The position numbers and the translations under genes are program-made. From IMG/VR virus record IMGVR_UViG_2563366903_000001: DNA of 7,412 bases. One strand, 5' to 3'. Source of the stretch: a virus. Taxonomy: Duplodnaviria; Heunggongvirae; Uroviricota; Caudoviricetes. The notes beneath the pieces were generated by a model. The model made no database searches and was not told where the DNA came from. It worked only from the letters and a program-made list of their open reading frames with translations. The first letter of the stretch is position 1, and every line of letters begins with the position of its first letter. Of the stretch, positions 2,680 to 2,945 are shown piece by piece.

Positions 2680-2693
2680 GTCTGATAAGGAGG

Positions 2694-2715
2694 ACGGGAG
2701 GCGTGCGCCTCCCGT
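2694..2715 (+). promoter_or_regulatory. Perfect 10-bp inverted repeat ACGGGAGGCG-TG-CGCCTCCCGT (stable GC-rich RNA hairpin), no following U-tract
   Basis: Read directly from the sequence. It starts 15 nt after the capsid stop (TGA 2677-2679), is immediately preceded by AAGGAGG (2687-2693), and is followed 8 nt later by the ATG at 2724. Confidence 0.55.
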
Positions 2716-2723
2716 AACAGGTT

Positions 2724-2945
2724 ATGGCAAAGATCCGATATCTGCATGGTACGCATGATGCCCGGGTCGGGGATATCCGTGATGTGGCACAGCCGTGTGC
2801 GGAGGTGCTGGTTCGCCTGGGAAAGGCGGAGTACATCACGGTGCGACGTCCGGCAGGTCAGAAAAAGAAACGTGATGCGGAGCATGGCGAATGTGGAACC
2901 TTTTACGGCGAACCCGAAAAAACCAGAAATCAGGACGTGACGTAA
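2724..2945 (+). CDS. Hypothetical small protein (73 aa), function unknown
   Basis: ORF between the capsid and portal genes with the same third-position G/C codon bias as its neighbours. The alternative frame here (2746..2940) gives a W/R-rich translation that looks non-coding. No family recognised. Its 3' end overlaps the called portal start by 55 nt in another frame. Confidence 0.5.
   Translation: MAKIRYLHGTHDARVGDIRDVAQPCAEVLVRLGKAEYITVRRPAGQKKKRDAEHGECGTFYGEPEKTRNQDVT

Follow-up and report, generated by a model that had tools for sequence, protein, structure and literature searches.

Introduction

Bacteriophage T4 provides the closest described cases of a ribosome binding site (RBS) that is divided by an RNA hairpin. 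In T4 gene 38 the hairpin cuts the spacing between the Shine–Dalgarno (SD) sequence and the AUG from 22 to 5 nt, and in gene 25 from 27 to 11 nt, as was found by mutagenesis and probing (PMC3014915, section 29; the primary work reviewed there is that of Gold 1988, Nivinskas et al. 1999, and Malys and Nivinskas 2009). Sites of this type have also been termed ‘noncontiguous or split’ (PMC7297116), and as far as we found, natural SD-hairpin-AUG sites are documented only for these two T4 genes (PMC3014915, PMC7297116). Here we describe a candidate for a further site of this kind, which lies at positions 2687–2726 of a 7,412-nt stretch of viral DNA (IMG/VR record IMGVR_UViG_2563366903_000001; this whole stretch is called the window below), between the major capsid gene and the start codon that follows it. 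The window carries the head-morphogenesis genes of an E. coli prophage that is lambdoid and of the BP-4795, 2851, YYZ-2008 and Stx1-Stx2 converting type. We give a probability of roughly 65% to the reading that 2687–2726 is a split (non-contiguous) translation initiation region of the T4 gene 38/25 type, and the element shows all five of the features of such a region that can be checked in sequence.

The likeness to the T4 sites lies in the spacing, the conservation and the position of the element. In both cases the linear distance from SD to AUG is too long, at 22 and 27 nt in T4 and 30 nt in the window, and folding of the hairpin gives a functional spacing, of 5 and 11 nt in T4 and, as predicted, of 8 nt here; the hairpin between SD and AUG is conserved within the phage clade and absent in more distant relatives; and the site lies at an intercistronic junction of late structural genes. 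The two differ in that the T4 sites belong to lytic T-even phages whereas the present one belongs to an HK97-like head module of temperate lambdoid prophages, with no sequence similarity between them, and in that the hairpin here is larger and more stable (9 bp, −17.8 kcal/mol), is flush with the SD, and seems to be derived from a post-capsid terminator-type hairpin. Moreover, the T4 sites are proven by mutagenesis and probing, whereas the present one is known from sequence and predicted folding.

Other described elements share parts of this layout. In phage T7 the intrinsic terminator T-phi follows the major capsid gene 10, and here too a GC-rich hairpin stands right after the most highly expressed structural gene, with a U-run following the hairpin in Erwinia/Pantoea, Serratia/Rouxiella, alphaproteobacterial and other distant relatives of the locus. 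The window hairpin differs from such post-capsid terminators in that it has no U-tract and is followed by AACAGGUU, and in that the SD of the next gene stands upstream of the hairpin, so that a transcript ending there would carry an orphan SD. Further intergenic stabilising stem-loops are those of puf and, as repetitive extragenic palindromic (REP) sequences, of malEFG. In the cip-cel operon intergenic stem-loops act in selective RNA processing and stabilisation (PMC10311766). As in these operons, a stable stem-loop lies here between a high-copy gene and a low-copy one and is plausibly a barrier to 3′ exonucleases; the locus differs from the malEFG REP in that it is not a dispersed repeat. In the non-contiguous translation initiation regions of thrS and rpmE, a hairpin that is a protein operator parts an upstream enhancer or standby region from the SD (PMC7297116). 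There, as in our proposal, a stable hairpin is tolerated inside an initiation region and separates two functional parts, whereas the present hairpin stands between SD and AUG and has no known binding protein. Our literature search for this element and for post-capsid terminators in these phages returned the T4 precedents and general papers only, and the element is not annotated in the BP-4795 record or in RefSeq.

Layout and predicted folding of the element

The SD AAGGAGG is located at 2687–2693 on the plus strand, at a linear distance of 30 nt from the ATG at 2724, and its duplex with the anti-SD is predicted at −12.2 kcal/mol. It directly abuts the 5′ base of an RNA hairpin at 2694–2715 on the same strand (5′ arm 2694–2702, loop GUGC 2703–2706, 3′ arm 2707–2715; 9 bp), and a single-stranded spacer of 8 nt, AACAGGUU (2716–2723, plus strand), separates the hairpin base from the start codon. 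An earlier note on this DNA had placed the SD and the ATG at these coordinates, and the sequence agrees with it. The perfect 10-nt inverted repeat that it reported at 2694–2715 is likewise present: the arms 2694–2703 and 2706–2715 are 10 nt each, 100% complementary and 2 nt apart, and as folded RNA they make a 9-bp stem with a GUGC tetraloop. The effective SD-to-ATG spacing of 8 nt upon folding, which had also been proposed, corresponds to the spacer as read, and the hairpin does start at the 15th base after the capsid stop and has no U-tract. Within the spacer (AACAGGTT) there is AGG alone, 2 nt before the AUG, and no usable SD, so that ATG 2724 has no alternative SD at normal spacing, which is one of the features of a split initiation region. 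All other recognisable strong SDs in the window stand 4–8 nt from their start codons, as against 30 nt for this one. Moreover, among the three intergenic gaps of the window the order SD, hairpin, start is unique to 2687–2726, and the other two gaps read hairpin, T-run, SD, start.

The 22-nt hairpin has a predicted free energy of −17.8 kcal/mol (z = −5.1 against shuffled sequences, with 0 of 200 shuffles equally good) and is the sole perfect hairpin of at least 8 bp in the 7.4-kb window. When it was folded in contexts of 61–161 nt, the predicted ensemble had a stem pairing probability of ∼1, and the SD was 76–100% unpaired. Sequestration of the SD by the CCUCC of the 3′ arm was rejected as a competing fold, because it is 12 kcal/mol worse (−6.9 versus −18.9 kcal/mol). 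A GGGAGG at 2696–2701, described earlier as a second SD-like motif held in the stem, does lie within the 5′ arm. The second GGAGG (2697–2701) inside the E. coli-type stem means that CCUCC 2708–2712 could in principle pair with either copy; only the E. coli stem types have this duplication. None of the Rfam 15 covariance models had a match in the window at E ≤ 1.

We propose that initiation would proceed as follows. The 22 nt that part the SD from the start region would form a very stable hairpin in the late mRNA; the SD would remain unpaired next to the 5′ base of its stem, with the AUG 8 nt beyond the 3′ base. The anti-SD of the 30S subunit would then pair with 2687–2693 while the hairpin protrudes, looped out, and AUG 2724 would stand at an effective distance of ∼8 nt instead of 30 nt and reach the P site; we infer this use of the SD across the hairpin by the 30S subunit. 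SD and stem may be flush because the SD:anti-SD helix stacks coaxially on the hairpin. The site would be the ribosome entry for eight closely packed or overlapping genes at 2724–6942, including those for a 73-aa open reading frame (ORF), the portal, a 407-aa ORF, the adaptor, head closure, a gp10-like protein and tail completion, and it could plausibly set a low, fixed output of this portal and neck block relative to the capsid protein. A T=7 head holds ∼415 capsid subunits and 12 portal subunits. Programs for gene finding or for calculating RBS strength will mis-score the start at 2724 if they rely on linear SD spacing, and engineering or modelling of late-gene stoichiometry in these phages requires knowing where ribosomes enter the portal block.

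The SD-hairpin-AUG geometry in homologous loci

Homologues were searched with the C-terminal segment of the capsid protein as the query, so that the downstream sequence could not bias the search, and 430 loci in all were collected from GTDB genomes, IMG/VR, metagenomes and GenBank records. The comparison set consists of 93 distinct sequences between capsid stop and AUG, which represent 384 loci, all also encoding a homologue of the 73-aa ORF, and its hosts are E. coli, Salmonella, Enterobacter, Citrobacter, Kluyvera, Pantoea, Erwinia and others (Enterobacterales). Under a strict definition, by which −1 to +2 nt part the end of the SD from the stem, the stem has 6–9 bp and the stem-to-AUG distance is 6–11 nt, the order SD-hairpin-AUG is found in 82 of these 93 sequences. 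The SD is AAGGAGG in 36 of the 82, AGGAGG in 21, AGGAG in 13, GGAGG in 10 and AGGA in 2. The stem-to-AUG distance is 7 nt in 46 sequences and 8 nt in 18 (6 nt in eight, 9 nt in six, 10 nt in three and 11 nt in one), the linear SD-to-AUG distance is 23–31 nt, and an SD-like tetramer occurs in the spacer of a single sequence (1/82). The gap between capsid stop and SD drifts freely, from −1 nt (TAAGGAG, overlapping the stop) to 13 nt. In homologues the effective spacing after folding is 6–13 nt, most often 7 nt. Among these sequences, the two distances on which a bridged RBS would depend stay constant, and the one on which it would not depend varies.

This geometry is kept across genera in which the capsid C-terminal segment is only 77–92% identical to that of the window and the flanking intergenic bases differ. 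The earlier note had made conservation of the inverted repeat in homologous loci a test of its own proposal, and the repeat proves to be conserved across several Enterobacterales genera. Its comparison with the bridged RBS of T4 gene 38 is supported in the same way, by a geometry kept in 82 of 93 homologous sequences and by stems with compensatory and G·U changes.

A further seven of the 93 sequences are variants of the same plan, three with one mismatched stem pair, three of the Erwinia/Pantoea type, in which G·U pairs carry the stem over the SD, and one with an insertion. In L188/L351, from IMG/VR and metagenome contigs, the hairpin has ∼14 extra nt (GGCGGGG-GAUCCCUCAGGGGGGAAA-CCCCGCC), and the flush SD, the basal GGCGGGG/CCCCGCC stem and a 7-nt spacer are kept, so the linear spacing is 38 nt with the effective spacing unchanged. 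Four of the 93 (Serratia/Rouxiella type) follow another plan, in which a hairpin (GAGGGGC-UUCG-GCCCCUC or a 13-bp version) is followed by a U-run and an 18–20-nt spacer with a weak SD near the AUG. Relatives with a spacer of 16–29 nt after the hairpin (the Serratia/Rouxiella type and 21 distant sequences) have an ordinary SD 5–11 nt before the start, and the lineages with this downstream SD lack the upstream one, which makes an either/or pattern. If it is a split initiation region, the locus would be an independent example of one, with 82 distinct versions, several stem types, loops of 3–6 nt and a natural 14-nt insertion. These natural variants would be a ready-made mutational series on how the 30S subunit accommodates a structured spacer, and L188/L351 would test the size of loop-out that is tolerated.

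The 56-nt element of the window, which is present there in a single copy, was found at 1919 places in 1005 of 5426 complete E. coli genomes; the exact type is hence carried by roughly a fifth of them, including Stx1 and Stx2 converting phages. Among the matches listed, every copy sits between a phage capsid gene and a hypothetical protein, and a REP-like dispersed palindrome was rejected on this context.

Base pairing in the stems of different lineages

The stems vary in sequence between lineages. In the E. coli type of the window the 5′ arm ACGGGAGGC and the 3′ arm GCCUCCCGU enclose the loop GUGC, and in a second E. coli type GCGGGAGGC and GCUUCCCGC enclose GCGA or GAGA. In Salmonella, Enterobacter, Citrobacter, Kluyvera and others the arms are GGCGGGG and CCCCGCC with a GNRA or other loop, in Erwinia/Pantoea they are GCGGGGA and UCCCCGC with the loop GAAA, and two other lineages have the arms AAGUGGGGA and UCCCCACUU, and AUGCGGGGG and CCCCCGCAU, respectively.

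Two MAFFT alignments shifted the arms between stem types and were unusable for counting pairs, and an alignment of the core anchored on the shared CGGG...CCCG was used instead, in which 76 sequences could be anchored. Five of the six core positions are paired in all 76, and the sixth in 75. The position below the core is G-C in 69 sequences, A-U in six and G·U in one; one core position is C-G in 74 and U-A in two, another is G-C in 62 and A-U in 13, and a further inner position shows G-C, G·U, A-U and U-A. Across the 13 distinct core stems, 97.4% of the cells are paired, and at three of the six pairs both partners change. Covariation scores 0.254, compared with 0.143 ± 0.027 in shuffles, and none of 500 shuffles reached 0.254. 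Moreover, when the 3′ partner was shifted by one column, pairing fell to 30–55%. A G·U intermediate between the A-U and G-C states is seen in L143, and where established stem positions depart from Watson-Crick pairing, the cells mostly read G·U on the sense strand. Thus an RNA structure is favoured over a DNA palindrome, and a palindrome or protein-binding site acting at the level of DNA is disfavoured.

Several observations weigh against a split initiation region. The start codon AUG 2724 is partly paired in some of the predicted contexts. Three of the six core stem pairs are invariant and a GCGGGG/CCCCGC core is common to most of the 93 sequences, so that there are few independent compensatory events; the covariation count also rests on a stem-anchored alignment, which leans towards the structure. 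The neighbour-joining tree of the capsid does not put the Serratia/Rouxiella type, with its ordinary RBS, outside the split-RBS types; recombination is likely. Finally, the Erwinia/Pantoea-type hairpin is followed by 6–7 U and resembles a real intrinsic terminator, and in some relatives of this type the SD can weakly pair with the U-run, which would fit a hairpin that mainly serves the capsid transcript.

Alternative roles of the hairpin

In the strongest form of this last idea, the hairpin serves the capsid message only, being either what is left of a terminator or a block to 3′-to-5′ exonucleases through which capsid mRNA outlasts the message downstream; the upstream SD is then unused across the hairpin, and the 73-aa ORF and the portal are weakly translated, either SD-independently or by re-initiation after the capsid stop. 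Almost all relatives, also those with an ordinary RBS, do have a GC-rich hairpin after the capsid stop, many of these hairpins are followed by a U-run as in Erwinia/Pantoea, and terminator-like hairpins are present in both other intergenic gaps of the window. Moreover, intergenic stem-loops set operon stoichiometry via selective RNA processing and stabilisation (PMC10311766). However, this explanation does not account for a strong SD that stays flush with the 5′ base of the hairpin despite the drifting stop-to-SD gap, for the constant 6–11 nt from hairpin to AUG (mostly the canonical 6–8 nt), or for the lack of an upstream SD in the lineages that have a downstream one, and the window version has no U-tract. 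Late transcription in lambdoid phages is Q-antiterminated, which makes termination there improbable as well. We therefore consider an exclusive role in the capsid message unlikely. As for the window hairpin itself, an intrinsic terminator was rejected: the stem is GC-rich, but AACAGGUU follows in place of a U-tract, and a consensus terminator scan does not report the hairpin.

A role in the capsid message and a bridging role are not mutually exclusive, and only the exclusive version is a rival to the split initiation region. The hairpin may plausibly protect the 3′ end of the capsid message in addition, a role that the earlier note had also proposed, and since the window version has no U-tract, it would do so only as an exonuclease barrier and not as an intrinsic terminator. 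This is consistent with the GC-rich, usually terminator-like hairpin that follows the capsid stop in nearly all distant relatives with an ordinary RBS. RNase III processing, which the earlier note had suggested, is unlikely at this site. RNase III needs a stem of about two helical turns, around 20 bp, and a 9-bp stem is far too short for it.

Structure near an RBS is usually inhibitory, and the hairpin might instead be a negative element that keeps the SD too distant or occludes the site, with no bridging, in which case melting by heat or ribosome traffic would alter expression. The phage needs many more copies of the capsid protein than of the proteins encoded downstream (∼415 capsid subunits versus 12 portal subunits at T=7), and the SD can pair with the U-rich tail in some relatives. 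Yet a melted hairpin would leave the SD useless at 23–31 nt, and a negative element would not select for a 6–8-nt distance or for a flush SD. Together with the predicted accessibility of the SD and with the finding that the equivalent T4 hairpins enhance initiation (PMC3014915), this makes a purely negative element distinctly improbable.

A further role would be that of a translational operator, where a protein from phage or host binds and regulates the portal block in the manner of the MS2 coat protein or the thrS and rpmE operators. It would fit a GCGGGG/CCCCGC core that is kept in sequence, beyond pairing, and a basic tail on the 73-aa protein encoded just downstream. We regard it as very improbable, given that the loops vary freely (GAAA, GCGA, GAAG, CUU, UUU, GUGC), the upper stem is rebuilt in the E. 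coli type, a 14-nt insertion is tolerated in one variant, and no RNA-binding domain was found in neighbouring proteins. A chance hairpin or neutral relic without function is hardly credible: a perfect hairpin of at least 9 bp arises somewhere in 7.4 kb in 18% of shuffles (0.24 per whole window in dinucleotide shuffles), but the expectation for this 44-nt gap is roughly 0.1%, the architecture is conserved across genera though the capsid segment and the flanking bases diverge, and covariation is present.

Two further candidates were rejected. A mini-ORF that serves as a leader for termination-reinitiation has no suitably placed start in the Salmonella/Enterobacter and Erwinia/Pantoea types and is absent from most other stem types. 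The window does contain a mini-ORF, GTG CGC CTC CCG TAA (2703–2717), whose GTG lies in the loop 9 nt after the SD and which is in frame with, and ends 6 nt upstream of, ATG 2724; it is probably fortuitous. Readthrough or frameshifting stimulated by the hairpin was dismissed because the capsid stop is backed up by two more in-frame stops, SD and stem are too close together to fit a slippery site, and there is no extended ORF.

Possible origin of the split arrangement

The split initiation region can also be compared with more distant relatives, whose capsid C-termini are 49–87% identical to that of a Chelativorans prophage and which come from IMG/VR contigs and four alphaproteobacterial GTDB loci. 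Their 21 distinct sequences have a GC-rich hairpin of 6–15 bp and −13 to −28 kcal/mol, located 7–33 nt past the capsid stop, which usually precedes a U-rich stretch, and an ordinary SD 5–9 nt before the next start. Because these distant relatives also have a post-capsid hairpin, the sequences point to such a hairpin as a general feature of this head module, and an SD on its 5′ side appears in them as specific to the Enterobacterales lineages. The sequence after the stem is UUUUUUCUCU in Erwinia/Pantoea, AUUUUGC in most Enterobacteriaceae and AACAGGUU in the window type, a variation that is compatible with a terminator that lost its U-tail on joining the RBS. The split RBS was apparently built around an older post-capsid hairpin, and the presence of ordinary and split arrangements at the same hairpin position gives a concrete hypothesis for how a split RBS arises. 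We suggest only tentatively that a terminator hairpin closing the capsid transcript was exapted, throughout a clade of Enterobacterales prophages, as the bridge of the split RBS and does two jobs, at the capsid 3′ end and as a folded ribosome entry to the portal and neck block; this is possible, and we lean towards doubting it. If it is true, mRNA-end formation and translational stoichiometry would be coupled in one 22-nt hairpin.

The gene at 2724

The earlier note had spoken of the portal message as the one downstream of the hairpin. The start at 2724 belongs to a conserved 73-aa gene (phrog_829; 2724–2945, plus strand), the first gene of the tightly packed block reaching 6942, and the portal starts at 2891. 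Sequence comparison argues for a real 73-aa gene with its start at AUG 2724: the N-terminus (MAKIRYL, MKQVRYL or MKEIKYL) is conserved from codon 1 in all homologues, codon differences fall on the third position 120,025 times versus 69,669 on the first and 47,358 on the second, and the ORF matches phrog_829 with E = 3.6e-38. The product is labelled a hypothetical protein in the BP-4795 record and RefSeq, has no match in Pfam, NCBIfam or PDB, and gave an unusable single-sequence AlphaFold model (predicted local distance difference test score of 43).

The homologue of Salmonella phage FSL SP-016 terminates within a TAATG that also starts the portal. GAATG is found at this place in the E. coli type, whose 73-aa ORF continues 55 nt into the portal gene; this indicates that the loss of a stop codon added 18 codons to the E. 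coli-type ORF. With either version, ribosomes that enter at 2724 pass directly on to the portal gene and to the closely packed genes that follow.

Gene order and other features of the window

The window matches 92 phage records at 90–99% identity, and its region is present in 1248 of 5426 complete E. coli genomes. It begins with the end of the terminase large subunit gene (64–678), which is followed by a prohead protease-major capsid protein fusion gene (742–2679, plus strand; Pfam Peptidase_S78 and Phage_capsid, phrog_617 with E = 1.9e-261, NCBIfam major_cap_HK97). The fusion gene has a GTG start with an ordinary SD, AGGAGG at 731–736, spaced 5 nt upstream. Its stop TGA is at 2677–2679, and further in-frame stops are TGA 2683 and TAA 2686, which places three in-frame stops within 12 nt at the capsid end (TGA GTC TGA TAA, 2677–2688); the third one, TAA (2686–2688), shares its last two bases with the first two of the SD.

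Downstream of the 73-aa gene, the portal protein gene (2891–4255, plus strand; Pfam Phage_portal, E = 5.5e-81) has its own GGAG 8 nt upstream and overlaps the 73-aa ORF by 55 nt. It is followed by the 407-aa ORF (4252–5475) and by the genes for head-tail adaptor, head closure, gp10-like and tail-completion proteins up to 6942. Genes in 2724–6942 overlap or abut, with ATGA at four junctions (4252, 5472, 6155 and 6598), the 55-nt overlap at 2891 and one 9-nt gap, and the only true intergenic gaps in the window are 679–741, 2680–2723 and 6943–7008.

The ordinary arrangement is seen on the plus strand at the terminase/capsid junction (703–736), with a hairpin at 703–720, a T-run, AGGAGG at 731–736, 5 nt and GTG 742, and again at 6972–7011, with a hairpin at 6972–6986, a T-run, AGGAGG at 6999–7004, 4 nt and the ATG at 7009 of what is possibly the major tail gene. 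Terminator-like hairpins with T-runs in these two gaps are located at 703–720 and at 6929–6945 and 6972–6986. Because the gaps at 703–742 and 6929–7011 carry a hairpin and T-run followed by a normally spaced AGGAGG, the genes of the window are divided into translation blocks, each headed by a hairpin and a strong SD.

The portal ORF and the 407-aa ORF, which overlap by ATGA, jointly cover the whole 859-position PHROG portal profile phrog_2271. In E. coli cM8a the homologous stretch is annotated by PGAP as one ‘frameshifted’ portal pseudogene, and in the BP-4795 record it is given as two coding sequences. At the junction of the two ORFs there is an A6 run (4247–4252) at which a −1 slip would join them; it is not kept in cM8a (GAGAAAATGA) or in Salmonella phage FSL SP-016 (ACAAAATGA). 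Since the A6 run is not conserved, two coupled genes look like the norm in this portal region, and the ‘frameshifted’ label may be an annotation artefact.

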